A stretch of 63,223 nt of DNA, filler included, from Lenisia limosa (lineage: Eukaryota; Protista; Breviatea), in assembly GCA_001655205.1 (NCBI GenBank). It is 6 parts of 6 records of this genome, joined end to end, with 100 filler letters (N's around TTAATTAATTAA, not from the genome) between each part and the next. Parts side by side here need not be neighbours in the genome. Positions count along the whole stretch, not along the records: positions 1 to 15,672 come from LPNZ01011220.1; positions 15,773 to 39,584 come from LPNZ01005501.1; positions 39,685 to 47,207 come from LPNZ01007542.1; positions 47,308 to 58,171 come from LPNZ01006510.1; positions 58,272 to 62,094 come from LPNZ01004022.1; 1 more part is not named here. One strand, given 5' to 3'. The notes beneath the pieces were generated by a model that did no database searches, was not told the origin of the DNA, and saw nothing but the letters and a program-made list of their open reading frames with translations. Numbering within the stretch: position 1 is the first letter of the stretch; each line of letters starts with the position of its first letter. Both the position numbers and the translations under genes were made by a program. Positions 1-61,300 of the stretch are shown here, piece after piece.

Positions 1-3000
1 GACGACTACCTCATTGACTTCGAAACTGCAGTCAACGTACCGCGACCGGAGAACATTCTGTCACGCGCCTTTGTCTTATTGGCCAAGCCCTGGGAGAGGT
101 TGGTCCGATATAGTTGTTTTTTTGTAGTAAAGTCTCTATTAAAACTAGGATCATAGAGAACTTGAACTGTACACAAAGAAAACACCCGCCAAAAACAACA
201 GTATAACCGCTTTCTATTACCGGCTGTTGTGGGAATCAGGGTTAATATTCAAACAGGCGTTATTTGACAAAAAAAATCTAAATTTCGGACACTTCTTGAG
301 AAAAGAGCAACCTGATACCTCCAGGAACGACCTCGGTACCAACCTGCTGCACATGATGGGCGCCCTGAGCCGTGTCATCCACCCAAGACTCGAGAACGCC
401 TGGGACGACTTGGTCCCCAAACTCTGCAACTATCTGGACAACCACATGGGTGAGTGGAAAGTTTACTCTGTCACCTCCATATCGCGTGACGGTGTTGACG
501 GCTTCGGCTGGATACAACCTTGTTTTATTCTTATCTCTACTCTAAGTATCCTTAACAACTGTATCGTAACCCCACTTTACTAGTAACATAAATGTAGGTG
601 ACAGCTTCCGCCCTGAGGCCTGGGGAGAGCATCTCCTGAAATGGGCGCATTTGACTCTGAAAACCGTCAACGACGACGAGTTCACGCGGGCTCTTGGCGG
701 TGCATTGGCTGTGGTGGGTATGGGGCTTCAGTAGCAGAACAACTGGATAAATAGTGAGGAAAGCTGGATAAATAGTGAGGAAAGCAGGATAATAGTGATG
801 ACAGCTGTAAATAGTGATGTGAGGGTTTCGACCGATTCTCTTCAGACCCAACCGCCTAGGACCTCTACACGCTGTACCCTTCAGGCACTTTCGAACGGCA
901 AATGGCATGCAAACTCCTGGGTCGTGTGCTCTCCTTCTGCCAAAACAGGGTAGGCTGTAAATAATGACTCCATTTCTCGATATTGTTACCACGGCGGTCT
1001 TTGTTTGGACCGTAGGGAGATATAGGCAGAATAACGACAAGCAACCCTATTATCACACTCATGCCTTCTATGTCCATAAGGATAAGGTGGAGGGATTAGA
1101 CCTTACTGCTTTATCAATGTTCTTACTGGTTTAGGCCTTTATCCGCGAGCAGCTTGACATTATGTTCTCTCACATTGACCACGCCAACAAGTCCGACAGA
1201 GAAGGTGTGGCTTCAAACCGTTGAACTATGTAACCTTTGCACAGTGACCGTGATAAATAAATAGTGACCGATAATGTTGAGTCAGTCATTTCTTATCCGT
1301 ATGCGTGTTCAAGCGTTATCCTTACCACCATGCTGCGTTTGTTTTGTTCTCAACACTCGTGTGTTGTCTGCCAACAGAGTTGATTTTGGGCTTTTTGTTT
1401 TGTTTCATATAATTTCCAATTTTATTCCTCCAGGCTGTGCGTTCGGTATTGGACAGTCAGCAGCGACCCATTTGGACATCGCTTTAGAGAAGCTCCTTCA
1501 CGTTACGAAGGTGGGAGTGCACAGAGTCTTATGGAAGTATTTTGTGGTTCAACATGGTCTAATTCCCCATCAACAGGGTTTATTCGGTCTCGGTTTATTC
1601 CTCATTATCACGGTTTATTCTATCATCATCACGGTTTATTCTTCATCTATTCTCTCTCATTATTCTTGCAGAACGACATGGTCAAGAAGTCCTCAGGCTG
1701 GTTCAGCAAGGACAAGAGCNNNNNNNNNNNNNNNNNNNNNNNNNNNNNNNNNNNNNNNNNNNNNNNNNNNNNNNNNNNNNNNNNNNNNNNNNNNNNNNNN
1801 NNNNNNNNNNNNNNNNNNNNNNNNNNNNNNNNGTCCTACTTACAGTGACCGGGTTAAGTCTTGACCGATTTTCTCCATGCTTTCCGAAGGAAAATCGGTC
1901 AACATCAATCCAGGTCACTGTATATTCAAACATGTTTCGTTCAATAGGCTGACCCGAGTAGCGCAGTAGCCCGTCTGGCCCCCTCGGAATTACTTATGTC
2001 ACGCATTGACGTTCACATCACTACCCCCATGATGCCCTTCCTTGCCGCTCCTCCGAGGTTCGAGGGTTTAGTGGTGGAATAAGGGTCAATATTCGATTGT
2101 TAGGAAACGTATCGGATGCTTCTTTTAATATCTTCTCCCTATCACAACACCCCCGAGCTGAAAATTGGGTGACAATTTTGCACTATTATATTTTTATTTT
2201 GTACATAAAAACACGGCTTTTATCCCTTTTTATTTGTTTACAAGATATACTAAACATCGCCGGATCATCAGGACATTGCCTGACTNNNNNNNNNNNNNNN
2301 NNNNNNNNNNNNNNNNNNNNNNNNNNNNNNNNNNNNNNNNNNNNNNNNNNNNNNNNNNNNNNNNNNNNNNNNNNNNNNNNNNNNNNNNNNNNNNNNNNNN
2401 NNNNNNNNNNNNNNNNNNNNNNNNNNNNNNNNNNNNNNNNNNNNNNNNNNNNTTCATTCTGAAGGCACGTGACCACCAACTCAAGACCGTGACAAGGATG
2501 CTCACCGGTCGGCCATGATGGATGGACTTATGCTTATGCTTATGGCTTCCCTACGAATTTCGATATTGGTCTTTTTCGGACCGTAGGGAAGCCCTCTCCA
2601 GCACGAATATAAGATGCTTTGTTGAGTACAGTGTAACGCAACTATTACGATGTGATTGTTATTCAGTTTAGCATTTGCGTGATATTGATAACCCCCCAGG
2701 CTGGGTATGGCCTGAAGCAGAGGACAAGAAAAGACCGCCCTTCCCGACCTCATGGCCCAACATCCCCAACTCCATCCGCATTGTTGCTCTCGACTCCATC
2801 ACCAGCCTCCTGAGCTTGGAGGTTGGCCATGTTTCTTTTCCACCGACCAATTATGTTTCTTTTCATTGCTGGATAAGTCCTGACACGGATATTGAACTTT
2901 ATCTTAGACAATCATGTCAGGACTTATCCATTCAGTGTGCATCTATTCCCCCATGTCCTCGATGTTGAGTCATTAGAGGCACTTCACACCCCTCACTCCC

Positions 3001-6000
3001 CCCATCTGGCTTTTGTCTAGTTTTATCGATGGTTGCTCATTTTGTTATTGCCCATTCGGTTCGTCGTGATTGGTACCTTTACGCCAATATTCGTCATCGA
3101 AATTTCCTTCGTTTTACCCAATTTACCCCCCCCCCTCTAGCCTGCTATGATCCCGTCCGACGACCAGCTTTCCTGCCTATTCCAGGCCCTTCGCCCGGTC
3201 TTTTTCCTCCAGCCCCCCGTGGTGGGTCAAAGCGGTCGTTGTACTTACAAATTAAATTCGTAAATGTACATGTATTATATGTATATTATGATGTAAAAAT
3301 TTTGGGAACATATGGATTTTGTAAACGGTAGTCAGGCTATCCCAAGCTGTAGATATTGCAAAATATCCCTGGGCACATACAAATGGTTTAATATCCCCAT
3401 CATCTGACCACCCAATATATATATGATAGAGTATGTACCATAAAACGGTGTCCTAACTACCTCATCCTCTGACCACCCAGGACAAGAACCAGAAGCCCAT
3501 TGCCGTCGCAGCCGATGAACAGACATGTGACGACGTCTTTGAGGCCTCCCTTGAAGTCTATCGCACCGTCCTGGGCATGAAAACGTGGGGGGTGACTACT
3601 GGGTGACTACTTACAAAGCAGGGTAACAACTTTTCTTGCTATTTGTGACCATATGTTCTCAGTTTAATCACCAAGCTTTCCCGTACATTGATAACTTCTC
3701 ACCCTGGCAGGACAGTAGAATGTCTGTGTCAAACTCTGGACTTCCTCGAGGCCCTGTCACAGGACCCCTCGGAGAACGTCAGGATGCGGGCAGTTACCGC
3801 CAGCAACGCCTGTATCTCACACTTCATCACAATCAAAACCGGCGATGAGGACACTGGTGAGGGGTGGAGTTTGAGGACACTGGTGAGGGTGGAGTTTGAG
3901 GGATATGCAGTGAAAGGGATAAGTCTTGACCGATTTCCCTTGGGAAATCACATTAGTACCAAATCGGTCAAAACTTATCCCAATCACTATATTCCATATC
4001 ATATCATATCCTTGCCATGTTCCTTTTTACTCCGTGTCTGCTCCATTTGATCACTTAGCGCTTAAAAATTCTCAATAAATCCTCAATACTAACAAACCAC
4101 GCAAGTGATCTAGAGATCTCACNNNNNNNNNNNNNNNNNNNNNNNNNNNNNNNNNNNNNNNNNNNNNNNNNNNNNNNNNNNNNNNNNNNNNNNNNNNNNN
4201 NNNNNNNNNNNNNNNNNNNNNNNNNNNNNNNCGCTGGGTCGGCAAGCTGGCACCGCGCTGCACGGACCCCTGTATTGAGCTCCGACGTGAGGCGTTGCGC
4301 GCAATGCATGCCGCTCTGCACCTCGACGCTCTGCTCATCGAATCCGAGGTGGCTGGGACCTTCTTTATAAGGCAACTGCCTAAGGTGGTTATAGTTTCTT
4401 ACAACAACGATTTTCCAAATATCATTACTGTTATTCTCTGCTGAGATTACACTAAATCTAAATCACGCAAGTTATGCACGTTTTCGTTTCTTTTTGTCCT
4501 TTGTCGGGACCAGTTTTGGAACACTATTCTTAACACCTTAGGGCGAGGCATTGATCGAGTCCGAGGGACCCCCGCAGGAAATTGAGGCTCTGTTGACTCT
4601 CGTGGACTCTGCCGATACGTCTACCCCGGCTGAATTGTTCGGCCTGGTGCAGAAGGTGGGGGGGTTGAGCACTTTGCACACTAGAACAATTCAGCCGGGG
4701 TGGGTTTTGCACACTAGATAGTATAGAAAGTTGGTAGTAGTGATATTATGGATAGCATAGATAACATAGGATGATTCCAGTCTTCGTCTTGAGTGTCAAG
4801 GACAAAAGATCCAAATATTACACATGTATGTATTCTTATCTGCATACATGTGGATAAGTAGCTCCATTGTCGACCCCTAATTGCAACAGATTGGCCAGGT
4901 CCTTTCAGAGAACGTCACTGAGGATGATCTGCCCTACCTGATTCAACACCTCATTTTTGCGTGAGAGGAAGGTCCTTTGCAATTGCCTAATGCTGTCAAT
5001 GTCATGGTCAAATCTCTTTGTTCCCATTGTTCACCCCATCCCCCTGTCCAATAAATTGTTCAAATTTTACGTATACGCTGGAGTGTGCTGCAGAAGCGAC
5101 TGGCCTAGGCTTTGTTTGTTTTGTTGTTNNNNNNNNNNNNNNNNNNNNNNNNNNNNNNNNNNNNNNNNNNNNNNNNNNNNNNNNNNNNNNNNNNNNNNNN
5201 NNNNNNNNNNNNNNNNNCAGACTGACCGACCTGACGCCAACCGGAGCGAGTGGCGCAGTCGTGGTGCTCAATGCGGTGTTTAAGGCCCGAGCCGAGGAAA
5301 TGACCACTTACGTCGCCGGCTGCATCGATGGTGGGTTTTTTGGGAACAAAAAGAGTATATCTGTCAAGATACCAAAGCTGTGTGACAGAGTTGTCAGGCA
5401 AATGATTGGGTAAATTAGTACAAGAATCTAATATCTCTTTTAAGTGTAATGGTGTNNNNNNNNNNNNNNNNNNNNNNNNNNNNNNNNNNNNNNNNNNNNN
5501 NNNNNNNNNNNNNNNNNNNNNNNNNNNNNNNNNNNNNNNNNNNNNNNNNNNNNNNNAATCTTGACCAATTTTGTTATGTGATATCCCAAGGAAAATAAGG
5601 CAAGACTTTTCCCGGTCACTCTATATTAAATAATATATTTTGGGAAACAAATAGATACACAGGGATACCATACACAAATTACTGTGTTGCTCATCTTAGT
5701 TCCCTATCAATAACTTCTCCCTCTCAAATGAACCTGTTTGACCTTGCTTCTTGTCCCTATATCATTAGTTGTGAGACTATTGATAACTTGGGCAGTCTTT
5801 ATTTTTGGCTAATAAATACTGGGATACCCCCCCCCCCATCACGCCTCTCAGGCCTTCGCGTGGCCTTGGGTGAGATGGAGAACGAGCNNNNNNNNNNNNN
5901 NNNNNNNNNNNNNNNNNNNNNNNNNNNNNNNNNNNNNNNNNNNNNNNNNNNNNNNNNNNNNNNNNNNNNNNNNNNNNNNNNNNNNNNNNNNNNNNNNNNN

Positions 6001-9000
6001 NNNNNNNNNNNNNNNNNNNNNNNNNNNNNNNNNNNNNNNNNNNNNNNNNNNNNNNNNNNTAGCGTGATGTTGTGGATAGCTTCGGTAAGATATAGTATAT
6101 TATATTGTTTTGTTTATGATCTCTACATATGAAGGACGCTGAAATCCATAAGCATGTCATATCAGGGTTCTCTGAAAGCCGCAATCATGTCCCTTTACCA
6201 AACCAGTCCGTACTCAACGAGCTGCTTAACAGTCCCATGCCGTTCTCGCCCAAGATCACAAACGTCTTCGCCACTCTGGCCAAGAACCAGACTCTCTTGT
6301 CCAACTGTGTGGCCCATCTTTGTGGTATCCTCAACACCGTGCCTCCTACTGTGGAGGTTGCGAGCCCCAAGTCCAAGGACCAATTCATCATGGTGCCCAA
6401 CAAGTGGGGAATGTGATCGCTTTTATGATAAACTTCATCGTTTTGTTTTTAGCCATATGGTTTTTAAAACTTATAAATAGCATCATTTTCAGCCAATGTT
6501 AACATCATCATCATCATCATAATGGAAAGCTGTGGTAGCTCCCCATCACCATCCTCTCCTCACCTCCCAGAACCATCATGGCCGCAACCGAGGGTCTGGC
6601 TGCCTTGTGTCATACCGAGGAAATGGGAGCTGTAAGGGGGCTGCTGAAAAAGTGGAGTTATTCATAGAGGTCCGAAAATGACCTTGAAAATATCGATGTT
6701 TATCGAGGATTTATCGAGAAATGCAGTCTTTTTTGGGATAGTAAAGAAACCCTAATTATACTGTATAACAGCTAAAGCTTCACTTCGGTTCAGTAAAATA
6801 TCGACAGTTTTCGAGGATTTATGGAGTCAGTCTTTTTTCGAACCGAAGTGAACCCTAATTACAGGCTATATGACACCCTAGGCCTTCGAAGACGAGGTTT
6901 CGATATTGGTGAGCACGGCGATCCTGCGTGTCGGCTCGGCTGCTGACCTCGAGAAACTGGATGGAGTGCTGCCTTCCGATCAGGTGGGGGGGGGGTTGAT
7001 TTTTATNNNNNNNNNNNNNNNNNNNNNNNNNNNNNNNNNNNNNNNNNNNNNNNNNNNNNNNNNNNNNNNNNNNNNNNNNNNNNNACAACCAGGTGTGTGT
7101 GAATGTTTGACGGGAGCACATTCATTATCCCATCTAGGCAGCCATGTTGGTGAAGTCCCTCTGTTTTGCTGCCGGCGAGGACGAGCTTGCTCAGGTTGGG
7201 AGGGGCGATTTCTATTAAGAATTCTGGCATAAAGGCAAGAACTGAAGAATCTGAAACCCAATCAAACCTTATTCAAGCGTTTCAGCTTAGCAATAATGTC
7301 TGGCAATAAACAGTAATAACAATACATATTTTTTTGAGCTTTGGATGCTGTGACTTGATACCTGGCAATAACGTACACAGCAAATGGAGGCTGCCAGCGC
7401 GGACTTCGCATCGTCCCTGTCGTACCCCCATCATTTGGTCATCTTCACGAACACCATCTTCAAAGTAGTCTTGAGGATTTTTTGTAAACATTGTATTTTT
7501 GGGGATTCAAGTGAGAACTCTACTTTGTTTAATCTGCTTGTGCTCTACGCATTAGCTTCTTTACCAAATTAACTGAAGGGCAGTGTTTTTAGAAAAGCTG
7601 AATAATGGTTGCAGCTTTTCGAGGGCATCATTCCTCCCGTCTTCAAGAGACTGTCCACCACGGCGTCCCTCTCCACCCACGGCTTCAGACTCACTTCCAT
7701 TGTGGCTATTGGTGGAGGGGGGGGGATGATGGAATGGGCTGTAATTGGGACTTCACTTCGGTACGAAAATATCGGTAAAATATCGAAATATATCGATATC
7801 GAGGATTTCAGCCATTTTGGGACCAGTTAGCTGCAACACTGCTCTTGTTGACTGTATTGATAGATTGCTGTGCACAGGCAAATGTTTGGGTGAATTAAAA
7901 TTAAACTCTAATCCAATATCTCTATTAATAAAGCTTGATGCTGTGGACGATTTCTGCCAGATATTCCTACATATTGTGGTTCTTTGTACCCCCGTTTCTT
8001 TCAGTTCAGCTGATCTCTGTAGGAGTGGTTCTCGACAATTTACCGCCCGAAAGCACTGTTGCTACCGATTTACTCCATCAGGTTTGAAGATTACCACTAA
8101 ATATCGGAGAAGAAGTGGTGTACTTACCATATTAGGCATGTGTCAACGTTCTTCTTGCCTTTGTGACAGACAAGTCCGAAGTGATTCGAGTACATTGCTT
8201 CAGGTAAGGTACCCTCCAGGCCCATCAGAGCTGATTCTGGGGTGTTGTTTCACAAATTCTCCATCCCTCCCCCATAAACTACCCATTTTTTCGCCATCAA
8301 CATTTTTCTAACCCCCAGGTCTCTGGGCAACCTGGTGAGCGCAGGCGCCACCGCTGTCGGCCGTTACGCGTCGCCGATCATGAACGCCCTTCTTGCTGGT
8401 GGGAGGGGTGGTGGTGATACTATTACCTGCTTGTCTGATATCTGTCTGTCCGCGATAGGATGTTATCAGCCTTTGTGTGTTNNNNNNNNNNNNNNNNNNN
8501 NNNNNNNNNNNNNNNNNNNNNNNNNNNNNNNNNNNNNNNNNNNNNNNNNNNNNNNNNNNNGTTTCAATTTTTTTCCAATTTTACTCCCGTGTAGGCATCG
8601 ACGACTCAGTGGACGACAACGGTATGGAGGCTATGAAGAGTCTCAGTCGCATCTTCGAGGTTGTGGACGAGGTTGGTAATGGGACTCTGTACAGAATGTG
8701 CTCTTCCTTACTTAATTGATACATTTACATTCTTGTTCTTAAAAATGGGAAGGATATGAATAGGGCTTCCCTACNNNNNNNNNNNNNNNNNNNNNNNNNN
8801 NNNNNNNNNNNNNNNNNNNNNNNNNNNNNNNNNNNNNNNNNNNNNNNNNNNNNNNNNNNNNNNNNNNNNNNNNNNNNNNNNNNNNNNNNNNNNNNNNNNN
8901 NNNNNNNNNNNNNNNNNNNNNNNNNNNNNNNNNNNNNNNNNNNNNNNNNNNNNNNNNNNNNNNNNNNNNNNNNNNCATCCGCGCGGCTGCCGTGGTTCTC

Positions 9001-10899
9001 TTCGGAACCCTTCACCGCTTCGGCAAGATTCCGGGCATCGATGTTGGCGGGCCCTAGTTTATCTCACCAAAGCTGCCCCCCATCCCCCCTCCAGAGCCCC
9101 ATAACTGTACTTAGCTATTTGGAGCTGAATACAAGCTTAGTGCTCTTTTAAATAATGTTACGTACAATATTTAAGCTTGGTATTAAGCGATAAAGAGAGG
9201 GGGAAAACGTTTCAGCTGAGGGGAAATTCCGTGTTTTCGGGGGTTCTTCTTCGGTACCTCGAGCATGTTAACAGTTCGTAAGGATCCTAGTTTCAAAAGA
9301 GACTTTCAAAAAGAGCATTCTATAACGCATTTAGGACACCTTCCGTGAGCAGATCCACACCAACCTTATGACTCTCATGGTGCATCTCAACGATGAATGT
9401 AGCGAGGTCCGTGGCAAGGGTTGATAGTTATTCAGTGACCGGGATTAGTCTTGACCGATTTGCACTTTGATTTCCCATGGAAAATCGGTTAAGACTTATC
9501 TCAGTCACTGTATACTGTATATATAGTATACACAATATATATGGTAGCCACAAGTACTCACCCCACCCCCCCAGGTTAGTGCCGCATGCCGGTCCACTAT
9601 CAGATGTCTCGCGCCCCTCCTCAATTCTGACGATCTCACTGATCGTGTGGCTCAGCAAGAGTGCGTATGGCTTGGAAAATGGAATTAGGGCTTTGCGGCG
9701 ATCCGAAAAAGTCCGGCAAAATATCGATATTGATCGAATATTTATCGAGAAATTCAGTCTTTTTTGGGACCGTTGGGAAGCTCTAAATGGATTATTAGTG
9801 CAAATGTTGTTAATAGATTCGTGACTCTATGGGTGTAATTAAACCCTCTTTTAATAAATAGCTGATATTCCACCAAAGACCCTTCATTTATCATTATGAG
9901 ATATTTCACCAAAGACTCTTTGCATTGATCATTATTAAATCGGATAAGCGTGGTGGTTTGTAGGACGGCTTCAGCCAGATACAAGTTGTTACCCCACATA
10001 AACCTGATGCTTTAGCTTTGACGAAACCTGTGTTGGCGGCTACTATGATACTCTGGACTCCATGTGTAAGGTAATAGGGTCCTCACTATTATGTAACAAC
10101 GAGCAAGTTGAGTGATTATTATTAGGGCGCACTGCAATTAATTTTTTGAGGAAATCAATTGACAAAATTGGATAATTAAGTATCTGAAATGGGGTTCTCG
10201 TTACAATATGTCGACTTCAAATTTTGAAATTCTTGGTTGTTTGGAGTTATAATTAATATATAACATGGCAACACAAGGTAACATGTAGAGTAGCATAATA
10301 ACATATGCATTTGAGTTCAATTCTCACCCCCCCCCCCAGATCCTTGCTACGGACTTCCCAGAAAAGTCCTCCTTCTACNNNNNNNNNNCATTGTACAGTT
10401 CTTCTCGAGCCAACATGAGTACATCAAAACAAACGCTGCTCAGCTTCTCTGTGGGTTTCGTCACCTGCTGATAGTGTAGACTGTAATCCAATATCTCAAT
10501 GAAGCGTGAGGCTTCGGCCAGATACAACCTTGTTTTATTTCCCCTCTCAGTATATCCTAATAAGGGGGTTCGCAATATCTCACAGACTTAGGCTGTATCC
10601 TCTTCTTCACTCCAAACGACTCTCGACAAACTCTTTCTGTTGACAGGTCGGGGGGGGGGGNNNNNNNNNNNNNNNNNNNNNNNNNNNNNNNNNNNNNNNN
10701 NNNNNNNNNNCTTTTGGGCGGAACATCCATTGTCTACTGCTGATAACGACTGGCCTGGGCTTTTTTGTTTCATCAATTTCCACTTTCCTCCCCTTTACGC
10801 ATTAGTGTGTCGCATGGTCTGACGGGGCTGATGAGGGATCCCAGCTCTTCAGTCCGCGCCGCTGCCGTGTTGGCCATGGGCCGCCTCTACGAGTACTAG
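1..10899 (+). CDS. MROH1: Maestro heat-like repeat protein (MROH1/SGR6 family), 5' partial, more than 30 exons
   Basis: Spliced exons give VPRPENILSRAFVLL, GCAFGIGQSAATHLDIALEKL, FILKARDHQL, WVGKLAPRCTDP, FREQIHTNLMTLMVHLND, and a last exon LMRDPSSSVRAAAVLAMGRLYEY* (TAG 10897-10899). These match recalled MROH1/SGR6 motifs in order. Confidence 0.85.
743..823. repeat. 21-bp intronic minisatellite x4
   Basis: CTGGATAAATAGTGAGGAAAG, decaying in later copies. Confidence 0.9.
1843..1920. mobile_element. Tc1/mariner-type MITE family B
   Basis: TA-CAGTGACC...GGTCACTG-TA with about 30-bp TIRs. Confidence 0.8.
3908..3989. mobile_element. Tc1/mariner-type MITE family B
   Basis: GGGATAAGTCTTGACCGATTT / AAATCGGTCAAAACTTATCCC. 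Confidence 0.75.
6775..6857. mobile_element. hAT-type MITE family A (a second decayed copy lies at about 6660-6755)
   Basis: CTTCACTTCGGTTC...GAACCGAAGTGAACCCTA. Confidence 0.75.
9433..9510. mobile_element. Tc1/mariner-type MITE family B
   Basis: Same TIRs; right flank TA. Confidence 0.8.
9686..9785. mobile_element. hAT-type MITE family A
   Basis: TAGGGC...CTCTA termini; TSD aatggaat/aatggatt. Confidence 0.75.
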
Positions 10900-11100
10900 T
10901 TCTTATTGTGTTGTATTGATGTGGAATGCATCCCTATCAAGTTACAACTTGGCTCAAAAGGGGGTGGCTTTGTAGTTAAAAAAATAAAAAGTGATAAATG
11001 TGGAGCTACATTTTTAGAAAAGCCCAACTGGTCTATGGTACAAAATTTCTGCTGCAAAAAAAGAAAGAAGAAAACGTGGGGAATAAGACCCGAAACAATC

Positions 11101-15672: not shown

Positions 15673-15772
15673 NNNNNNNNNNNNNNNNNNNNNNNNNNNN
15701 NNNNNNNNNNNNNNNNTTAATTAATTAANNNNNNNNNNNNNNNNNNNNNNNNNNNNNNNNNNNNNNNNNNNN
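15673..15772. other. Artificial assembly linker (also 39585-39684, 47208-47307, 58172-58271 and 62095-62194)
   Basis: Identical 44 N + TTAATTAATTAA + 44 N; the 12-mer gives stops in all six frames. Confidence 0.95.
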
Positions 15773-18800: not shown

Positions 18801-21800
18801 ACAGCGACAGATCCTCAGCACATGGCTCGGGAGCTAACAGGCGCTTCGTGGTCTGGGGGGAAGGGATGAATTAAGTGCTATGATTGATAGATAGGGCTTA
18901 ACTTTGGTTCAAAAAAAGACTGAATTTCTCAATAAATCCTCAAAAGCTATCGATATTTTACCGGTCTTTTTCGAACCGAAGTGAAGCCCTAGATATGACC
19001 ATCTGGCTGATGTCAAAAAGTGCTGCTAAAATGCGATCGAAATGCCAGCCAATAAATACAACCTATAGTTATTATCCCAAAATACTTTACGTGATTCCAC
19101 CTCAATGATACTCCTGAGGCTTTGGATCTCTACGACCGCGCGTGACAATGACGCCACATCTGTAATGGGCGCGCTCATGGGACGCGTGATCCTGGAAGAG
19201 ATGGAAATGAGAACTTATGGAAGAAGAGAAAAATAATAAAAGCAATATTTATGAAACCCACATGAGGTCCCGGGGGAAGAAAGTTCTGATACAAAATTGT
19301 AAACTACCCCATGCAGTTGAAAATAAAAACCAACCCATGTGTATATAGACCCGAATATGAACCACTGACTCTGAAGTATCTGGACCGCTTCCATCAATGA
19401 TCGCCTAAACTGTGAAGACAGAAGAAAAATACTACCAAAATCATTGTCCAAGTAGCTAATACCCACCCCCCTCCACCTTAAGTTTTTTAATCTCCTTCTC
19501 AGCTTTTGAGAGGGCTAGCTTGAGTTCGGCTGCGCTGCGCTCTCTGTTGATCTTCGCCTTGTTCTTGATGGACTTCGCTCTTTGGGTGGTTTATGTTGGG
19601 GAAATAAACAATCAGCTCTGTTTCGTGATATATATACATATAACAGGGTGAAAAATGGAATAAAAAGATCGACCCTGTCGCTTTCCAGTACTGTGGATAA
19701 TATAAATATTGAAATACTTGAGCCACTCTGATTATTCAGCAAACCCTTTACCACCAACCTGGTGCCAAATCTCAGAGTGGACACGGTTTCAGGCTCATTG
19801 ATGCGGGCAGGCGAACAACAGACAATCAGGGACGTGCGTGAGTTGCCTCCCACTGACTCTTGCAGAATGCGGGTCAACTTTGAGTCGCGATACGGGATGT
19901 GGGTAACCTGAAAAGTCAATTCATGGAATTGGTGATAGCAAGATTGAATACTGTGCATTAACAGAATAAATGTGTGTGTGTGTGTGTACTTTTTTTCGCC
20001 CCATTTGAATCACAAAATCCCCATATGTGACGCTCATAAAAAAAACCGTTCCTACCGTGGGGTCAGTGAGCGAATTGATTACGTTGCCCAAGGCGGAGAG
20101 GGACTTATTAATCATTTTAGCCTCATCAAGTGTCAGTCCCTGTGCGTCCGTGCGGTCGACCTGGAGGACATGAGGCCAAATACTGTGATCTTTGACAAAG
20201 CTAATACTTCCCCACAAAGTTCTCAAAGTAGAACCTGCCCCTGTTCAACCTCCACACACCCTCTCAGAACCAGCCAAATCCACGAGGTTGAGCTTGCCAC
20301 TTCGCGTGCTCAAATCGGTCAGATTCTTCTGAGTCACAACAACGGTAAAGATACTGTGCGAACGCGAAGAACCTGCATTCATTTCTACACCAGTAAGCCT
20401 AGCCATAAGATAGCCGGACCAATGTCTCGATTTCTCACAATATCCTCCACGATTGACAGTGATACCTTGAATGCAACCCCCACCTACTTGTCACTGCTTT
20501 GGCTCTGTTGTTGCTTCCCATATCGAGAAGCTCAATCACTTCCTCCAGTGTAGACACGTATAGTTCTGTGGCTCCCCCCACCTAAGGGGGGTTGGAGTGA
20601 AAAAATCAGACTCAATAGGTTAAACAATATTACACACATGAAGATATTAAATAAACAAATCTAACTCTGGGAGGGTGGGATAGATTGTTAGCAAATACAC
20701 GCATCAATAAAAAGAACACGGAAACGAGAATACATGATGACAAATGCAGAACATCACGATGCGTACGTATACACCGCGCTCCTTGCTTTGGTGAATCTGA
20801 AGATTGTCGTTGGCGACTAAACCGTTAGGACTTAGTGACTGCCTGGTTGTATTCAAATATAGAACAGTATAGAAAAAAAAGAAATAATCAAGACATACCG
20901 TTGAAAAGATCTCTGACACGCTCCATATATATTTCAAAATAAGAGACTTTGACGGTAAACTCCAAATCCTCAGCTGCATTTACAATTTCATCAAAAAGCC
21001 TCCCGACCTGGGTGATTAATCAATAAGACAAATATGAAGATAATGACATGCTAAATATTAATTTCTGTCCCTCATCCTCAAAAACAATATCGGAACTCTC
21101 GACCATCATCGACGCTGTGAACCTAATGAAGCCCAATATACCAATCTGGGAGTGAGTCCGGCCTGTGGTCCAGTCAATGTTGGGCCCTGCATTGTATACG
21201 TCTTACCCGCACTAGTTTGGCCTGGTTGATGATAAAAATAGGACACGGGGAGGGAGGAGGTACACATAGTCAATATTCAAACAATCCGCAAAAATGGTTT
21301 ACTCCATACCGTAAGCAAAAACGGTTCCATTGTAGCCTTTGAAAATATCTGAAAATGTGAATTTTCAAGAAAAAAAACCATGAAAACAGATCTAACGCTT
21401 GGGGAAAACTAGCCAATGACCAAACCAAACACCAGTCATAGACAAACCGTCAATCGTGGGCTTGCCAACAATGTCATAGATATCTGCCTGTGTTGCACCC
21501 CAGAAGATGTTGTCAAAGTTAAAACGATGTGTACCAGTAGCGCCCTAAAAAGCCATGAGTAGCGACTCGGAGTTTACACATTTTATCTGTTTGATAACAT
21601 TATGAGCAATTCAATATCATATCATATGCATTCGTGAAAGAAATGTGGGTTGAAAGGTCTTTTAATTCTGAATAATATATAAATATATGTATCATCTATA
21701 TAGTTCAATGAACAAATACCTCCATCCTCCAACGTTTAGCTCAACACTGGTGTTGTCATCATTGAAATTGGCGCATATACCTCCGCCAGATTTCTTTTCT

Positions 21801-39989: not shown

Positions 39990-42900
39990 AAGTGCAGAAA
40001 TGGATTTGCCATTTGCATGCCCCCCCCCCCCCCNNNNNNNNNNNNNNNNNNNNNNNNNNNNNNNNNNNNNNNNNNNNNNNNNNNNNNNNNNNNNNNNNNN
40101 NNNNNNNNNNNNNNNNNNNNNGCGATGAGAATCACAAACCGACAGAGGTACAGGTACTGAAACGTCAGAGAACAAAGATGCAAAGGATGAAATGCGAAAA
40201 GTTGTATCGCCCTGAAATCCAACACACTTCCATTTTGGATGGCAACGGAGACCCACAAACGTTTCCAGGGGGGAGGAGAACGGTGAAGAGGATGGTTACA
40301 AAAGGCGCTGCGTAAGCAATGAAGGTTTGAAGAACCTGGGGGAGTGAGGAGCTTGGGATGGAAACTTTGAGGACATAGAGAACACAAGACGAAAACAAGG
40401 CGTATGATTTATTATTTCATACTGTCTGATATGGAGAGATGCGAAATAAATATTGGTAGTTTCTGGCCGGAAAACGTACACACCAGCAAGCTAAAAAGAG
40501 ACATTGGATTACAAGTAAAAATATAGTGTAAATAAGAAAACAATTACATGTAGTATATACGCTCTACCAGAACAGCGTTATTTCCCCAATCCTCGTCCAT
40601 CCAGACCTTGTTTTCTTCCCAAAACGCAGCCTGGAACTCCTGCTCGATAGCAAAGGGGCTCTGTGCTTTTCGCTTCCTCAAGGGCGGCTGATTCGATTTT
40701 GCACTAAACACCGTAAGACTCCACGGTTGTTATTTTCCTAAAAATAGCCGAATTTCTCCATAAATTCTTGATTGATATCGGTATATCCTGTTGGCTTTGG
40801 TTGTGTTTATCTGTGTGTCCATATGCAATACAGGCATACCTAGGGCCTCCCTTCGATCCCAAAAAAGACTGAATTCCTCGATATATCCTCGATAATTATC
40901 GATATTTCACCGGTCTTTTTCGGACCTTAGGGAAGCCCTAGGCATACCTGATGAAGGGATCTTCGTAAGACGCTTGGAAAGACCTAAAACTAATGAAAAG
41001 AAACTTAAAAATCGACAGTTTGCTTGGAATAAGAGAAAAGCGTCACAGATAGCGCAAAAGGCATTGTAACAGAGATAAGTAAACAAATCAGACAAAAATG
41101 CACAACATAAATCGGGTGAAAGTTTCAAAAATCCACACAATCCTCCTTCCCACCTTTGGCTCGGAGTTGAGATCATGGTGGTTGGCGTCGTCGAAAGATA
41201 GGCAGTAGGAAGTTTGGTCCGTTGAAACGTTTCGGCTGGAAGGCGCAGCGGAGGTATGCGATGCTGGAATCGCGTCCCGATGCTGCCAAGCTGGATGATG
41301 TTAAACAGTAAGTTATTGAACAGTGTTTGTATGACATTTGACAGTATATGATATGATACTAAACATGGCACTAATACTTCGATATTACTAGGTTATCTAA
41401 CTAATCTATTTTTATGTGTATATTTTTATGTGTCAATTTTATTCAATGATTATTGTTAGCCCACCTCCAGGCCTGTGACTGCATAGGCATGATATGGCAA
41501 AATGGAGTTCTTTGGCTTTGACAACCGGGTGAGCTCGGAAGAGAAAGGAGCAGCCTGCAGTGTGAATGAGGTGGAAAGGACTGGAAAGAGAAACTGTTAT
41601 ACCCTATATGATTATATGTTTAATCGATTCCGTTTCATAATCTCCCTTTCCCCAAGCATGTCATTCACCCTTTCCCCAACCATGTCATTCACCCTTTCCC
41701 CAAGCATGTCATTTTCGCGTTCATCCATTCGGTGACCATAGATAACCATATCCTACAACGTAAGAGAAAGGGTCAAAAACAATGGGGGATGGGGGGGGGT
41801 AATAGTGGAAAATTATGAAACAAAAAAGACCAAATCAAATCTGTTGGCTGACAACACGAAGCACCATCCCATCAATGGGAGGAATCAATAAAACCTCCTA
41901 TTTAAGTAAACGCCCGCACACCAAAACAACATCATCATCCGAAGCATCGCTCCACTCTTCATCGGAGTTGTCATCGAACAATTCATTGCCCATAGCCTTG
42001 ATTTCCATTGACTCTGATGTGATCTAAAGAGTGACAATTAGGGTTTCCCTTCAGTTTGAAAACGTTTATCCAGAAATTTAGTCTTTTTCGAACCGAAGGG
42101 TAACTCTAGTGACAATGGAAGGCTGGGTGACGTGTACAAGACCGCCACCATAATACACCACCTTGGTAGATATAAAATATCATATGATATGATATGAATA
42201 ATACCCCCGCACCTTGGACGAGACAGCAGACCACACGGGGCGGCTGAGGGACTTCCAGTGGGCTTCACCCAAATAGGAGCAGGAGAAGTTGTAATGCGGG
42301 CTGTAGAGGTACTTGACGTGCCGGGTCGGAACCCTGGGCATAGGAATGTCTGCCACCACTACAGGGTCAGAATTGCCCATGGGTCAGAATCATGTATGTG
42401 GTGAACTCTCTTCTCCTTCAATATATATGCAATATGATACAATGTTATACCATGTGATGCTGCTCCAAAGAGCCCCATATACTCCATTAGTCCTTGATAA
42501 ATCCCCTGTTTTTGTCGCAGCTGGCCAAAGAAAGCCCACCAGGGGGGTCTCCGGAGTAGATCGGAGTAGCGGAAATGTCATTGGTTCGGACATGGTTGGA
42601 GCAGAGAATGGACGAAACAATCTGGCGGGATGAAAAAATAACAGGGTGACTATATAGCAATGAGAAATAAAAAAAGGTTGTACCTAGCCGAAACTGTCCA
42701 CGCTCATAAGAGTTATTATATTGGATTTTAGTAGAGTATTAATTATAACTCTGTGCACAGCTTTCTGCGTGCCTCCAGATGACTAGTCAAGAATATTGAA
42801 ATGGATGGGACAATAATAAAGAATATAATCTTAAATCGAGGTAAAGCTCATGCTATTATGTAATTTAGTCGTTATCTCACCTCCTCAGAAAGTTGGAAGT

Positions 42901-47010: not shown

Positions 47011-47392
47011 CAAGACCCTTCCAAGCCCCACAAAGCCACACAGAAGTCCTACAGAGCCTGACAGAGCCAAGTCCCACAGATCCCCATATATCCCCTTTAT
47101 ATATAGGACCACCTCCAGCATCTTACGACCCCCCTCCCCCCAGTACTAAGGGCTTCACTTCGGTTCAAAAATAGACTGAATTTCTCGATAAATCTTCGAA
47201 AATCATCNNNNNNNNNNNNNNNNNNNNNNNNNNNNNNNNNNNNNNNNNNNNTTAATTAATTAANNNNNNNNNNNNNNNNNNNNNNNNNNNNNNNNNNNNN
47301 NNNNNNNCCCCCCCCCCCCCACCACCATTGTCCTGAACTCTCAACTTTCAACTTTTACGGACTGATCAAATTGATACCAGTCGCATATTTTC

Positions 47393-50300
47393 TTTAAGTT
47401 GTTGTTTACATTTCGCAGTTAACGGCTACAACACCCTGTTTTTCATTGGGGAAGGTGCACAGCCTTACCGGCAACAGATGTGGGAGGGAGGGTTTCAAGA
47501 ATATGATATGAATAATTCAGCTCAATTGTGGAATAAAAATAACAAATAAGATGATTATTCTCTGATTAAATCGAATCATCTTTTCCCGTGCACTGAAATA
47601 TACCATCTTGTCTAAAAACGGGGTAGCTCTAAGAAATGTAGTTGCAAGTATTGACCTTTTATTTTTTAATTTTGTTCATAAAAACACCACTTTTATCACT
47701 CTTTTTAGGCAAAAATTATCAATGCTTCGGACGAAGTTTTTTTCACTCACCAACCAGACTTCCACTATCTGAATTTGTCCACTGTGGCGAACCAAACTTC
47801 CCATTTCATGAAGCCTCTATTATTCGTATCTTTTGGGATGTCACCGGGGATGATACCGGTGTGGCTGAGGGTTGTAATTTCTTCTTTATTAAAGTGGTAG
47901 TCACACATAAATAGACAGATATTATATATTCTCATCATATCATATTGTTACTTTTCGCAATTACCACCTTTTATTTACATATTCAGCTCGAATCTGCATC
48001 GATGACTTTACTGCACTTTTTGTTGACCCTCCTCTCACAAATATTGAAGGAAATGTAACAATGGGGGTGAAGCTTGATAGGTTTTTATTTCACATAACAC
48101 TGACTTTCAATTCACGTATTTGTATTACGGCATAAGTATTGTTTCAAAATGGTTTTTTTTTCATGAGTTTTAGGTGTCTGTATGTTTTATTATTTAACCT
48201 TTATTTATTGGATTCTTTTCCTCTTTTTACAACCAACAGAAACGCGCGTTGTATGTTGCTCCTGGCTTGTCCTTTAAGACGATTAGTCATTTCCAAAAGT
48301 GGGTTGGAAGATTGTCTGGCTGTAGAATTCTTCTAAGGGTGATGGTGTGGACGGCTTCTGCCAGACACTATAATTACTCAGGATCCTTTATAGCGAGATG
48401 GTTCCGTGTTTACAGCTAGCTTTTGGCGTGTATCTCCATCTCAAGCATACGCATGTATTATACATAGTATATGATATCGATATAGATGTATATATCGATA
48501 TAAATCTCATATAATATGTATATGATATGAAATGTATTAATTATAATATTGTCACCATTGACCGCTCTTCTTCTTTGCCTTTATCACACACATCCGGGTA
48601 GAGGTGTGGTCTGTCGTGGCAATAGTATACTTTCACAAATTTTCTGTTAATTGTAATAACACTATTTTTCACAGTTGCAGGCAGCCTGGATACTCCAGTG
48701 ATACCCCTACAGTAGTGCTTCTTCAGGAAACTCCTGAAAACCTTTCCTTTACCTTCGGTTTGTTGTAATTAGGGCTTCCCAGTATACACTGCTAGTCATA
48801 GTATGTCTAGATAGTTCTAACAAATAAAACAAAACAACGAAGAAAAAAAGTAAAGTTCCATCACTGATTCATTTCAGATCCTATTGTCAACTCTGACACT
48901 GCAATAATTCCCTTTGAAGCGCGTTTTGCTCTCAGTAACTGTATGATGGAGATGAAAACTGATAAACACTATTAATATGTGTGAAACATAAAAGACATAG
49001 CATAGCGACTTTGCACCCAATATCTATGGGGAAGCGATTCACTATTCAATTTAAAGAAAAAGATATCTTTTTTTTGGATATTTCGAATAATGACCTTTAT
49101 TAGGTTACAGCTAGGATAAATTGTTTTCACAGATTTCTTTATTGATGCATTCGACAAAACTATCACAACGTCACCTCCAATTTAGCAGCCAAAGTTGACA
49201 CAGTCCTCGAAGTCTCTCTGTTATTCCAATTCCCTGGTGAGAAAATTTGACAAAGATATAAGCTCATTTTTACACCAATACAAGTCACGCTTGAGTGATG
49301 GGGTGGTGCCTAAGCGACTGGCATTGGTGTTGTGTTTCCAACCTGTGTTTTTTCAGCCAACAAATTTGATTTTTGGGTTTTTTTTGCTTCATAATAACCT
49401 TTTCGCGACTATTTTTTATCAAGATTTCCTTTGTTTACCCCACCCCCGCAGGATTCGCGGACTCTATGACTCAGTTGTTTGAGGTTCATGTAGTTGAGGC
49501 CTCACCGGAGCCTCAGGAGTATGCCGTGCTTATAGTGTTGTCTCTTGGGCTTCACTTCGGTTCGAAAAAGACTGAATTTTTTGAGAATTCTGTTAAAATT
49601 ATCGATACTATACCGCTATTTTTGAACCGATGTGAAGCCCCAGTTGTCTCTCTTGAAACTAGGATCATAAATAGCCAGCGGGAAACTGTACACCCAAACA
49701 CGATTAACCAAATTGGCTCATTCTCTTTTCACCCCCCCCCCCCNNNNNNNNNNNNNNNNNNNNNNNNNNNNNNNNNNNNNNNNNNNNNNNNNNNNNNNNN
49801 NNNNNNNNNNNNNNNNNNGTCCGGCTTCGATTCTGAGGACCTACCCGCAATCAGAGATCGAGTAGCGAAACCTGGTGAGACTCCTGTGATAATTTCATGG
49901 ATATTTATGATCCTAGTCTCAGTAGACTTCACTCCAATTAGTAAATCTTTTATGCTTTCAACAACAATGAAATACCCAGTTGTTTTGTTACATGATTTTA
50001 GCAAAATAGGCAAATTCTGTCAAAACAGCAAAAAAAAAAACAACTGTTAACTTTGGGGAACGAATGGATAGAGTAGTTACATGTATAATGTATAATGTAT
50101 GAATGATTGGTTGAGCCCCCATAGACAAAAGAGTTATAAGATAAGAATTGTAAAATTTTGAAGTTGTCTCCATGGCCAGCTCAGAATAATTTTACATTTA
50201 GTAGTCTGGCTTGATGTGACAACCCGTTGAATTCACGTTTAACCTTGACTCTCATAGGAACGTCAGCCTATTTGGTTTACAACAAGTACTTGGACGTTGC

Positions 50301-55699: not shown

Positions 55700-56035
55700 T
55701 TTTTCAAGTGGGCGGGTTTGTTCCTTTTAATATAAAACCTTACTTCATATTGGTGATATATGTTGTACCAGTTGACACCTACATATTACCATGTATTTTT
55801 GTTCCTACATTTTTTAAAACACCGATACAAAATGTTACTTCTCTACCCCGCGTCGTCTATTTTATTGCCCTGAGGACCAATCCCTCTCATTTTTTTCCCG
55901 TAGCGGTCCCCCCCCTTATTTTACCGCAGAATCATCATTTCCCCTAATCCTGACCAACTCATGTGTGTTGCTAATCAACAGAATTGATTTTGCTCCTTTT
56001 TTTGTTTCATAAATTTTCCAATTTAACTCTCCCAG

Positions 56036-58034
56036 CATCATCATTTGCAATGATGACGGCGACAGATAAGGCTCCAGGAAGAGACCAACTTGGCCTGATT
56101 ATCTCGTCATATGGCCACGAGGTAACCCGGGATTTTTGTTTGTTTCTTACAGTCTCTAAGAAAACAAGTTGTGCTGTTTTATTGCAAAAGGGTCGGGTCT
56201 CGGAACGATACCAATTAGGATAATTATACCTAGTTGATACATCCTGTTGTTGTTATTTAGTTTCATCAGAATGATTCTTTGAGCAAACATGTACATAGTG
56301 TACAGGTATAGTATTCTTGAATTGAATTACTGATTATAAAGTAGTGTTGCTATCAAAGGATACATTCCTGTGTTTTAGTTTGAGATTATATCTCTGGAAT
56401 CAAAATTCCATAGGTGCAGTTGCTTTTTCAATTAGCTATGTTGGATCAACAATTTTGATAAATATATTTTGTGTTCTCCCAATACACTGTTCTCTTTTGA
56501 ACTTCCTCAATTAGGCATAAAAGTTGAAAAATAGTGAAGTATACTGTATTATTAATATAATAGATGTTGTTGGCTCAACAATTAAGATGTGTATTATATG
56601 AAGGGGGGGGGGGGNNNNNNNNNNNNNNNNNNNNNNNNNNNNNNNNNNNNNNNNNNNNNNNNNNNNNNNNNNNNNNNNNNNNNNNNNNNNNNNTTAGGTA
56701 CTTGCAGGTCAGCCCATCTACTCCCCAGAGGCTCCAAATTACAATGTGTGCCCTGTTACGCCCTTTTGATTTTGTTGTTTGTTTTGTTGTTTGTTTTGTT
56801 TTTTATTTTATTGTTCTCACCTCTCCTCCTACTCCCCTCCATATTATCATTATGACACCTCCAGACATTCCTGCAGCAATCCATCAGCCGTTCTACGGTC
56901 ACTGCAGGGCACCGCTCCCAGCCTGCTAAGCCTTTCACCAAAATGATGAAATACTGTAAGGAGTTGCTAGGCAAATGATTGGGTGAATTTCTAGTATGTA
57001 TGCTGGGGTGGCACGCTGAAATTGTATGCACAAAGTTACTTGGCATATGATTGGGTAAATTAATATCTCTATAAGCATGATGGTGTTGACGGTTTCGGCC
57101 AGATACAATCTCTTTTTTATTCTCATGGAATACTATATATTATATACGCGTTGTTGCTGTCATTTTGCCAAAATGAACTACTGTGACGGTCATAGTTATA
57201 TCCATATGCTGTATACAACCCCGTGATGGGATGAGGAAGACATTTTCCAATTCGCTTTTGAGAGTTTAATTTATTTCATAGTATATAATTAAATGGCGGC
57301 TTTTGTCGATCATAAAAAAATGAACGCGGACATTATTGATTTCGCTTTATGGCTGTCACCTGGGCCGGGGTTTCTAAAGTCTGGATTATTTAACTGGGCA
57401 GTGTGGTGGTTGCTGATTTCCATAACCTTCCTTTTTGAGTAATTTACTCTTCAACAGCGTCTTAAGCTTAAGTTACGTGTAAACAAAGCGGGGTACATGT
57501 TGAAAACTTAAAGGTATCCAACCATATTTCGAATATTTTCGGGGTCATCTATCCAAATTGATAACATACTTTACATAAAGGCTGTTTTGATATGATGGTT
57601 ATGATATTTCCTGGGCCTCTTCTCGGAAATGATCAACTATTCTGTGGTTTACCTGGTTTTTTCTGTATGGTGTGTTTTATGTTTCTATTCTTAAAACGTC
57701 TATTTTGCCTGGATTTTTTTACGGTTTAGACTCGGACGGAGCAGTTTCTGGGTCAATAGCAGTGGCTGAAATTGGTGCTACACACCCCTTGTAGGCAGAT
57801 AGGGAGGTTCTATATAATATCCCCGTTGGCTCGGGCTGTTTTTTTGGTTGTTTTCAACCCTTGTGTAATATCAGATAACATATTTGATTTGGTTTTTCCC
57901 TCATAAATTTCCAATAACACTCCCCCAGTGGCTCACAGATTTTATCCACACGAGGCCTGCTTTCCATCAGCCTTCCTACTGCTGCTGTGCACTTGTCGGT
58001 CATCAGTGGGGGCTGCAAGAAAGAAGCCGGGAAG
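56036..58034 (+). CDS. Possible hypothetical gene fragments
   Basis: Exon-like GC-richer blocks with GT-AG borders (ATDKAPGRDQLGLIISSYGHE, VLAGQPIYSPEAPNYN). Frame continuity is uncertain. Confidence 0.3.
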
Positions 58035-58348
58035 GTTAGGGGGACGCCATGTTTCCGCCGTCTGTATTAAGTACCATAACAATATTCAGTGTGCGTTGAT
58101 GTGGAGATCTCCTTTCATAGTTTTCATTTTCGTTTCAAAAAGTACCTCTCACTCTCTTTCGTGACACTCTTNNNNNNNNNNNNNNNNNNNNNNNNNNNNN
58201 NNNNNNNNNNNNNNNTTAATTAATTAANNNNNNNNNNNNNNNNNNNNNNNNNNNNNNNNNNNNNNNNNNNNAAAAAAAAAAAAAAAAAAAGGAGCATTAT
58301 TGACCGAATGTTCTTTCTTATCATTCATATTTTTTTCATGAAATTTAG

Positions 58349-61300
58349 CCCATTATTGAGAGTTGGCTCGAGAAGCAGCCAAGCGACATGAAGGGCCGAC
58401 TTGGGGGGTGGGTTGGGCGTATTATATACTACATGCATATCATATATTATATTGAATTTTGTAAAAAAGAAATGATATGCATTTGAAATCTAGGAAATAA
58501 ATAAATACATAGGGATACCATTTGGGCTTCACTTCGGTTTCAAAAAAAAAGGCTGAATTTCTCGATAATTCTTCGATAAATATCGATATTTTATCAGTCT
58601 TTTTCGAACCGAAGTGAAGCCCTAGATACCATAAACAAATTACCAAACCCTTGCGCCATATATCTACCACATGATATATTGGAATGTGGTCCCTACAGAT
58701 TTCACACCGATCAAGTCAAATTCACCACCTTACAGATGGGTGAACGATCATGTTGGAAAGTGTCTGGACTGGCTGAGTTGCAACGGTGAATACGTCTTGC
58801 CATTCTCTACCCAGGTTGGGGGGGGGGTATGTTCATGTCTATTGTATATATCGATATATATAATTATATATATACATGTATATATAGAAGTATTTACAAC
58901 TACATATAGTCTCTATAGTATAATATCATACATATGATATATAATATATAATAGTATATAATATACTATATTGAGCTACCTAAACAGTGACCTGGATAAG
59001 TCTTGACCGATGTTCCTTGGGAAAACATAGCAAATCGGTCAAGTCTTATCCCGGTCACTGTATACATAACCTGTTCTCGTCTTCAAACGCTCGGAACACT
59101 AAAATTCGACCGCATTTTTCTATTGTTTTACCCTTTAGGGTGTGCTGTCAAATGCGTTGTCTCACCTCGTTGGAGTTACTAATAAAAGTGGGGGGGGGGG
59201 GNNNNNNNNNNNNNNNNNNNNNNNNNNNNNNNNNNNNNNNNNNNNNNNNNNNNNNNNNNNNNNNNNNNNTGCAACATATCAGTGAACCGTTCTCCCCTTA
59301 CGAATCAGCTGAATTTGTTGTCGCGTTGGCTCGTGGAATGACTGCGAACCTCCCTCCCGACATGCAGAAAGCTCTTGCAAAGGAAATATTCAGGTTTGAG
59401 CATCCCCACCCCCATGTTTTTTTATTTTTTATTTGTGTTTTTTTTAGATCCCAAATTTGCAGCTTTTCACGCAGTATTTCACCTAATCGTAGATGGAACA
59501 ACGAGCAGCCTCTCGACATCAACGAACCCCTCGACTGCTACTACTGCACCAAGGCCGGCGGGCTTAGGTCCTATAAAACTGAGATCTTGAGTGATCTGTC
59601 GGCTGACCATGTCCGCGAGGGCGCTGTCGTTCCCACACGGTGCGGGGAGGGGTATATTATAGATATATATACTACATGATATACATATATACGATATATA
59701 CGACTATATTTTATCATATACAATGAGATATCATATGTATGTACATATATATAGCAATGAGAAATAAAAATAAAAAAAAATAGGGATGTATCTGGCCTCA
59801 GCCGTCCACACCATCACGCTTAATTTGACCCCCCCCCCCCCCNNNNNNNNNNNNNNNNNNNNNNNNNNNNNNNNNNNNNNNNNNNNNNNNNNNNNNNNNN
59901 NNNNNNNNNNNNNNNNNNNNNNNNNNNNNNNNNNNNNNNNNNNNNNNNNNNNNNNNNNNNNNNNNNNNNNNNNNNNNNNNNNNNNNNNNNNNCTCGTCAA
60001 TGTCGTCACTCCCTGGATGGACACTCTATCCGCGATTATCCTAGTCGGGCCTGACGGTGCGGGCAAGGACCTTTTGGCACAGTACATGTTCGGAAGTGGG
60101 AGTGGGGTATTATTGTATTTATTGGGGTGTTTATACGATATATGCCGTGCCCCCACACACATCCATATATATTCTATATATATACAAATATGTACATATA
60201 TTACTAGTCTATTTTTCACAGCCACATACATATAAAATTTAGTAGATAATAGATACAATATAAAATAAATATCCAATGTAGTACACACATATATACATAC
60301 TATTCTATTCTATTGTATTTATTTTTTCACGCTCCCCCTCCAGACATTCGTCGAGTCCAAGTGGTGCCTGTGTATTGCTCCAGTGTAACCTCTGCTGATG
60401 ATGTCATTGCGCGCCTATCCGCTTCTGCCCTGTCGTTTAGCACGAAAGATGGTAGGACACTGAACTGAATTGTGCAAAATCAGCGGTTGTTGTTTTATTT
60501 TTACTGGACAAAAATGTTGATGGTGTCCCTAGGTTTTTTTTTTCTGAAATATAATATGATATTCTTGCTCTCTAAACACTTTTGTAACCCTTGGAGGGCC
60601 GGATAGATATTTAGGACCATATATCGGAAATTACCATAAACAGCTATCAATTCATAACATTTAACACATAAACCATAACACACCAATTCATACATGCATT
60701 GAATCATCTTAAGCCTTCGAGAGCCATAACCTTCCTTTTTAACCCCTTCAGGCCGGGTGTTCCGTCCTCGGGATGGGTCGGACCGACTCATTCTCTACAT
60801 CAAGGTTGGTTACAAGGTTCTTTGGTGTTGTTGATGGTGTCATTAGGTTGTTTATCTGTTTCATAAATTTTTCAATTTTACGTATGATGGTGCTGCTGAA
60901 GCGACTGGCCTGGGCTTTTTTTGCTTTGTTGTTATAAACCCTTGTGTGTTGTCAGCCAACAGAGTTGATTTTGGGCTTTTTTTTTTGTTTGTTTCATCAA
61001 CTCCCCCCAGGATCTGAATTTACCCCGTCCCGACAAGTACCGGACTACTCAGCTGGTTGCCTTCCTCCAACAAATCGTGACTTTCAATGGGTGGGGGGAT
61101 ATTCTCGCAATATATGCTTGCTCTTTTTACTCCCGCCACACCCCTCCTAAATTGCCTTATATTGGTCAAGGTCCTCTTTTTACTCCTTTTTGTTTTAGAA
61201 ATTTTCCAATTTTACTCCCCCCTGCCCCCCACCAGTCTTCTTACACGTCCCCACATATTTCCTATCAAAGATCCTGCTCTTTTTATTCCCGCTCACCCCG

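Follow-up and report, generated by a model that had tools for sequence, protein, structure and literature searches.

A repeat that runs up to the terminal AG of introns in several genes raises the question of whether it made those introns or moved into introns that already existed. Such a repeat, here called D, recurs along a 63,223-nucleotide (nt) stretch of the genome of the breviate Lenisia limosa (assembly GCA_001655205.1; hereafter the window), and an earlier note on this DNA proposed that it is either a decayed introner, the relic of a mobile element that creates introns, or an element that survives only where it supplies the 3′ splice site (acceptor). D is a high-copy, non-coding repeat of ~145 nt that lies in the sense direction within introns; its positions, orientation and high copy number, the unique 5′ ends of the introns that carry it, and the match of its end to an acceptor module of the host are directly observed. 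We put a probability of roughly 0.5 on the reading that D entered existing introns, likely by retroposition primed at C-runs, and that copies landing at acceptors would make the intron longer and become its new 3′ end.

Placement and orientation of D within introns

The analysis rests on 82 curated GT-AG introns, 60 of them in five genes, where the reading frame and a recognisable protein anchor them, and the other 22 predicted by a small gene model that was trained on the window. A D profile gives 10 matches of at least 10 bits, compared with 0.03 per shuffled window (9 of the 10 were seed members), and D was found at all nine sites listed by the earlier note, so the repeat described there is real. 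The profile misses the kinesin copy, whose score in a pairwise test is reached by none of 1000 shuffles. There are 12 copies in 12 introns of the window (Table 1); weak profile matches at 45059, 63117 and 60855 (4–5 bits, near the null rate) are excluded from these counts. The introns that carry D are 115–328 nt long, a wider range than the 160–250 nt given before, and D is carried by 8 of the 60 introns of the five homology-anchored genes (~1 in 8). The acceptors at 1433, 5220, 8594, 10805, 19580 and 61010 are consistent with open reading frames, and the frames require removal of the intron. Five copies (1337, 8222, 55951, 57826 and 61186) have an intact 3′ tail but no 5′ part, and two others have internal deletions. 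The exact D pattern has no match in the JGI metagenomes, and decayed D tails reach P<0.05 in only 2 of 64 other introns, on which ground a widespread presence of such tails was rejected.

The 3′ splice boundary is the position that D reaches most often. Among the 11 copies whose ends are visible, 6 end at most 6 nt from the AG and one more within 13 nt; 4 fall short. Because the last 14 nt of D resemble any acceptor, they were trimmed before placement was tested; the trimmed repeat ends 12–21 nt before the AG in 7 of the 11 visible copies, where uniform placement predicts 1.6 (P 1.4e-4), and none of 37 copies of the three control families M, C and E does so. The claim that about nine copies abut the AG therefore holds for 7 of 11 visible copies; the end of the copy at 5220 is hidden, the copy before 49451 stops 57 nt short, and the three previously unlisted copies all lie 40–109 nt from their acceptors, which indicates that the earlier list was enriched for abutting copies. 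These three copies retain a complete tail (ending at 8274, 41793 and 61221) and close their C-run in T or AT, not in AG.

All 12 copies are sense to the host gene (binomial P 5e-4), as had been claimed, the minus-strand copy in kinesin included. The accompanying argument, that ordinary transposons show no such fixed orientation, fails in this genome, since 20 of the 22 family E hits (17 of 19 loci) are sense. Across 41 introns free of repeats, the interiors hold TTTTT 34 times against 9 for AAAAA, and TTTATT 17 times against 5 for AATAAA; introns thus avoid sense A-runs, and a T-rich repeat is expected to persist mainly in the sense direction. The distinctive trait of D is its position and not its orientation.

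The host acceptor module and the tail of D

Introns without D carry a compact signal at their 3′ ends. A TNAC or TRAT motif lies 5–9 nt before the AG in 49 of 69 of them (shuffle mean 10.6, maximum 22), and its branch-like A peaks at −9/−10. The tail of D consists of TTAC followed by a C-run and is kept also in copies away from acceptors (41793, 61221). When an AG follows, this tail places an A at about −10, and it is therefore the tail that likely provides the branch point, as judged from motif position, and not the internal YTGAT favored earlier; that motif lies at −36 to −54 in the five abutting copies where it is visible, and was rejected on its position. An acceptor-donating role of D is thus largely supported, in that its end carries the branch and C-run module of the host and abuts the AG beyond chance; that D survives only there does not hold, since 4 of 12 copies are short of the acceptor. 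The compact module may let the 14-nt end of the repeat act as a whole acceptor. A branch motif at a short, near-fixed distance from the AG is described mainly for intron-poor lineages (PMC2483917, PMC6679479). The layout here is the same, but unlike those mostly intron-poor lineages this genome is intron-dense, with ~33 introns in one gene. As a side observation, donors are G-rich (GTGGG in 18 of 82 introns), acceptors are C-rich, and many N runs adjoin G- or C-runs.

Origin of the D-bearing introns

Two sequencing data sets bear on the window, a DNA run (X1) that covers it and an RNA run (X2) that covers a small share of it (0.07). To the 481-nt stretch 60770–61250, which holds two D pieces, 7,652 X1 contigs align, 792 of them at least 99% alike. 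Summed depth is ~29 over 60770–60837 (exon, donor and the first 33 intron nt), rises to 3–6e5 over 60889–60973 (the body of D), is back to ~28 in the exon that follows and reaches 1.6e5 over the lone tail (61195–61211); such depth does not equal copy number, and it marks D as very abundant and sharply bounded, with the donor outside its limits. Family-level depth persists through the TTAC and C-run of the tail. In X1 flanks C is the majority base at ~10 positions before the start of D (70 contigs, agreement 0.51) and at 9–12 after its tail, agreement in these loose-end consensuses being low (0.5–0.64). Among the joints listed, a D tail is followed by a new D copy that starts at varied internal points, and one joint has a C-run and AG between two tails. 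None of the X2 contigs listed spans a D intron; one carries the MROH1 exon pieces 2699–2819 and 3711–3857, and those that bear D may be DNA or unspliced RNA.

Like introners, D is high-copy, host-sense and placed at a splice boundary, and introners too can carry a 3′ splice signal; D is unlike them at the 5′ end. Two introner surveys demand that similarity start no more than 10 bases into the intron from each boundary, and they discard secondary insertions into introns already present (PMC9860276, PMC12130899). D starts 18–243 nt after the donor, similarity reaches to within 10 nt of the 5′ splice boundary in 0 of 12 introns, and in no copy is the start of D the GT at the donor, so such pipelines would discard it. 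Aligning the D introns for 5′ homology, as the earlier note advised, gives no similarity beyond that among other introns (P 0.68–0.85), and a shared 5′ start was rejected on this null result. The two GTTGGT starts that had seemed alike are unremarkable, since GTTGG opens 8 of 82 introns and 11–34% of non-D pairs score as high. That D once spanned whole new introns, the 5′ parts of which have since diverged or been replaced, would account for the sense orientation, the 3′ boundary match and the five introns that retain just 35–74 nt outside D. We consider it very unlikely: the 5′ boundary is unreached in 12 of 12 introns, the first 33 nt of intron 60805–61010 are single-copy and give way sharply to a high-copy body, and tandem and mid-intron copies exist. 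Intron gain by D is so far without support. The kinesin intron presumably shares its position with human KIF5 genes, for which a literature search gave neither support nor denial; the same search found no exon boundaries for human KIF5A, KIF5B or DYNC2H1. In 80 metagenome kinesin loci, a set ranked for uninterrupted matches, no intron occurs at the site wherever the motif was found.

Priming at C-runs is the simplest account of abutting copies without an old intron end, C-rich flanks, truncation and tail-to-head repeats. A partner enzyme would start copying at the C-rich 3′ end of the D transcript and place the copy in a C-run, yielding 5′-truncated copies and head-to-tail re-insertion into older tails. 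Acceptors would be the largest single class of sense C-runs and would receive many insertions; in the 41 repeat-free introns CCCA is found 15 times among the final 30 nt and 19 times in the interiors. The AG and first exon bases would be duplicated behind D, the AG stranded upstream would decay or be skipped, and antisense copies, which put A-runs on the sense strand, would be purged as for family E. The copy ending at 56035 fits this mechanism exactly, in that the acceptor CAG and 11 exon nt at 56033–56046 are repeated (13 of 14 nt) just upstream of the truncated D, at 55927..55940 on the plus strand. This near-copy is the best of 82 introns and likely a target-site duplication; there is one clear and one possible duplication among the 12 copies. 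On the features tested, D falls outside introners, miniature inverted-repeat transposable elements (MITEs) and short interspersed nuclear elements (SINEs) derived from transfer RNA (tRNA). It shows no end-to-end pairing and no terminal inverted repeats (folding z 0.24, −0.02, −1.47 and 2.18), and an origin from a structured RNA, tRNA or small nuclear RNA was rejected on Rfam, folding and the tRNA scan. As for Helitrons, there is no stable 3′ hairpin; tandem copies would fit, and the one clear duplication would not.

Selection might produce much of this pattern unaided if D inserts anywhere and antisense or mid-intron copies, which bring A-runs or a competing branch point and AG, are mostly purged, leaving survivors at intron ends or with a dead AG. 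The strand asymmetry of introns in general, the sense bias of family E, the T or AT endings of the three non-abutting full-tail copies and the lack of enrichment in target duplications all agree with this, and we judge it unlikely rather than remote: an old intron-end remnant is expected behind D, yet 6 visible copies end 0–6 nt from the AG, the C-rich 5′ flanks and tail-to-head joints suggest a site preference, and thousands of copies imply very many purged insertions. Strand and position would instead be set without selection if insertion were coupled to transcription or to the spliceosome, through machinery tethered to 3′ splice sites or using the non-template strand. All copies being sense with none at donor G-runs would follow, and family F (below) is also at acceptors in both of its copies and family E also strand-biased; nonetheless such coupling seems improbable, as tethering is without direct evidence, 4 of 12 D copies are away from acceptors, and composition asymmetry is a simpler cause of the strand bias.

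Several points weigh against entry by C-run-primed retroposition. The D statistics derive from 12 copies in one window, and four of the acceptors on which the reading leans (41753, 49451, 56035 and 57928) are predicted by the gene model alone. The boundary duplication test gives a combined P of 0.035, driven by one copy; tests of duplication over whole introns give P 0.17–0.30, with 1 of 12 D introns and 7–10 of 70 others below 0.1; and relics resembling acceptors show only a weak enrichment upstream of the D starts (P 0.03–0.06; families E and M null). The duplication and relic tests were chosen after the 56035 copy had been sighted and are exploratory. The window contains no tRNA and, over 60700–61400, no Rfam match with an E below 0.77 (RNA polymerase III boxes were not scanned), and no partner reverse transcriptase is evident in the window's list of open reading frames, read by eye without a domain scan. 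The C-rich X1 flanks could belong to the element itself or to D tails in tandem, and the terminal AG may be that of D or that of its target. Read on the antisense strand, the G-runs of donors supply just as many C-runs (TGGG occurs 17 times in the first 12 nt) and yet hold no D copy, so that a strand filter must be added to the model. A bolder form of the retroposition reading would make D, and probably family F, acceptor-homing retroposons that insert purposely at 3′ splice sites, a safe harbour available throughout the genome, regenerate a working branch point and AG behind themselves and have rewritten the acceptors of ~1 in 8 introns; we hold this possible but less likely than not.

Other features and relation to known systems

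Family F resembles D in that both of its two copies end at acceptors (3140 and 49451). Likeness between the D and F tails gives P 0.15–0.29, and a shared tail was rejected. Near the F copy at 3042–3140, the bin 2601–3120 shows high X1 depth. Family E always ends at least 29 nt before the AG, usually 29–100 nt before the acceptor, and family M is never less than 26 nt from an acceptor. We take family C to be Tc1/mariner-like.

Table 1. Repeat copies in the window, with the distance from the end of D to the intron-terminal AG
Feature	Position	Strand	D end to AG (nt)	Setting	Basis
D copy, 5′-truncated	1337..1433	+	0	Acceptor of MROH1-like intron 1205-1433	Profile, frame continuity
D copy, 5′ start visible	5075..5220	+	0 (not visible)	3′ 89 nt are N up to CAG of intron 4961-5220; end hidden	Profile
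D fragment, 5′-truncated, unlisted earlier	8222..8274	+	44	Before acceptor 8318	13.4 bits, outside seed
D copy with internal N run, seen either side	8461..8588	+	6	Before acceptor 8594	Read by eye
D copy, internal deletion	10743..10792	+	13	Before acceptor 10805	Profile
D copy, diverged	19580..19684	-	0	Acceptor of kinesin intron 19758-19580, phase 2 in Arg of FGTR/AK	Pairwise test, frame, Pfam Kinesin
D copy, internal deletion, unlisted earlier	41793..41874	-	40	Before modelled acceptor 41753; possible 10-nt flanking duplication	Profile
D copy, full 5′ start	49288..49394	+	57	Before modelled acceptor 49451	Profile
D copy, 5′-truncated	55951..56035	+	0	Modelled acceptor 56035	Profile
D copy, 5′-truncated	57826..57928	+	0	Modelled acceptor of intron 57791-57928	Profile
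Extra D tail	60855..60881	+		Head-to-tail with 60879 copy	Weak score, 4.3 bits
D copy, near full-length	60879..61010	+	0	Acceptor of DYNC2H1 intron 60805-61010	Profile, PDB match
Lone D tail, 5′-truncated, unlisted earlier	61186..61221	+	109	Before true acceptor 61330	Profile
Family F copy	3042..3129	+		Runs into acceptor 3140	Sequence comparison
Family F fragment	49396..49451	+		Between D and AG	Score 23.5, against at most 11.5 in 76 other acceptor regions
Family E, ~190 nt full length, often without 5′ part	476-530, 7895-7963, 10477-10545, 42651-42761, 44139-44259, 57027-57139, 61920-62017, others
Family E, four-unit tandem array	43530-43681
Family M, ~100 nt, palindromic, MITE-like	11797-11882, 18893-18990, 40842-40939, 55425-55520, 22 more (26 hits)			Often TA-flanked
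Family C, ~80 nt, MITE-like, CAGTG ends	9430-9510, 52378-52457, 58985-59063, 4 more

The window comprises 6 contigs, separated by identical N-flanked 12-nt spacers (15673-15772, 39585-39684, 47208-47307, 58172-58271 and 62095-62194) that are likely artificial joins, which would make gene order across them meaningless. Pfam matches in the window's proteins are HEAT_Maestro, in the MROH1-like gene, and Kinesin; the exons after acceptors 61010 and 61330 match DYNC2H1 in PDB. An MROH1 exon used as a homologue-search query gave no match, and the sole database protein that matches the kinesin exon in full is an unspliced open reading frame call. From their translations we take an ALG5-like glycosyltransferase to lie at 11000-14300 (−) and a LicD-like gene at 62195-63223 (+), and presumably an ankyrin-like start that leads into an acidic region of low complexity at 35200-36300 (+); these labels are unconfirmed. 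Read by eye, there are also short intronic minisatellites (1570-1650, 12360-12480) and a long, imperfect duplication in inverted orientation near 29270-29385.

Several known systems share features with D. Antisense Alu elements and other SINEs donate 3′ splice sites through their T-rich strand, rarely and usually to alternative exons. Common to them and D are the use of a T-rich strand as pyrimidine tract or acceptor and an orientation bias in introns driven by selection, but D is mostly at apparent working acceptors, lacks a poly(A) tail and a detected tRNA or 7SL head, and has a branch-like motif. Site-specific or safe-harbour retroposons of the non-long-terminal-repeat class, such as TRE5-A near tRNA genes, and elements that target microsatellites or telomeres resemble D in keeping to one position and orientation at a host site where they do no harm in a gene-dense genome, and in re-inserting into older copies; D differs in having no identified autonomous partner. 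SIRE copies in Trypanosoma cruzi can supply the pyrimidine tract and acceptor for trans-splicing, and SIRE appears the closest functional analogue, although it is intergenic and serves trans-splicing, whereas D is shorter, lies in cis-spliced introns and apparently replaces acceptors as a rule. SIRE is a short repeat linked to VIPER (PMC3418195, PMC4006747). A search of an incomplete full-text literature collection turned up no element that targets 3′ splice sites. D acts as an acceptor-donating short repeat does, but apparently at scale and at working acceptors.

Known effects of transposons include the creation of whole introns and, now and then, the donation of a splice site. To these two, a family that takes the place of thousands of constitutive acceptors would add a third; such replacement lengthens introns and renews the signals at their 3′ splice sites, and it may account for the fixed branch-to-AG spacing in an intron-rich genome. 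Acceptor homing, if true, would represent a way of life for mobile elements that is screened out by introner surveys and that could homogenise the splice signals of a genome. If selection alone explains D, the family would still illustrate strongly how the demands of splicing sort repeats according to strand and position.

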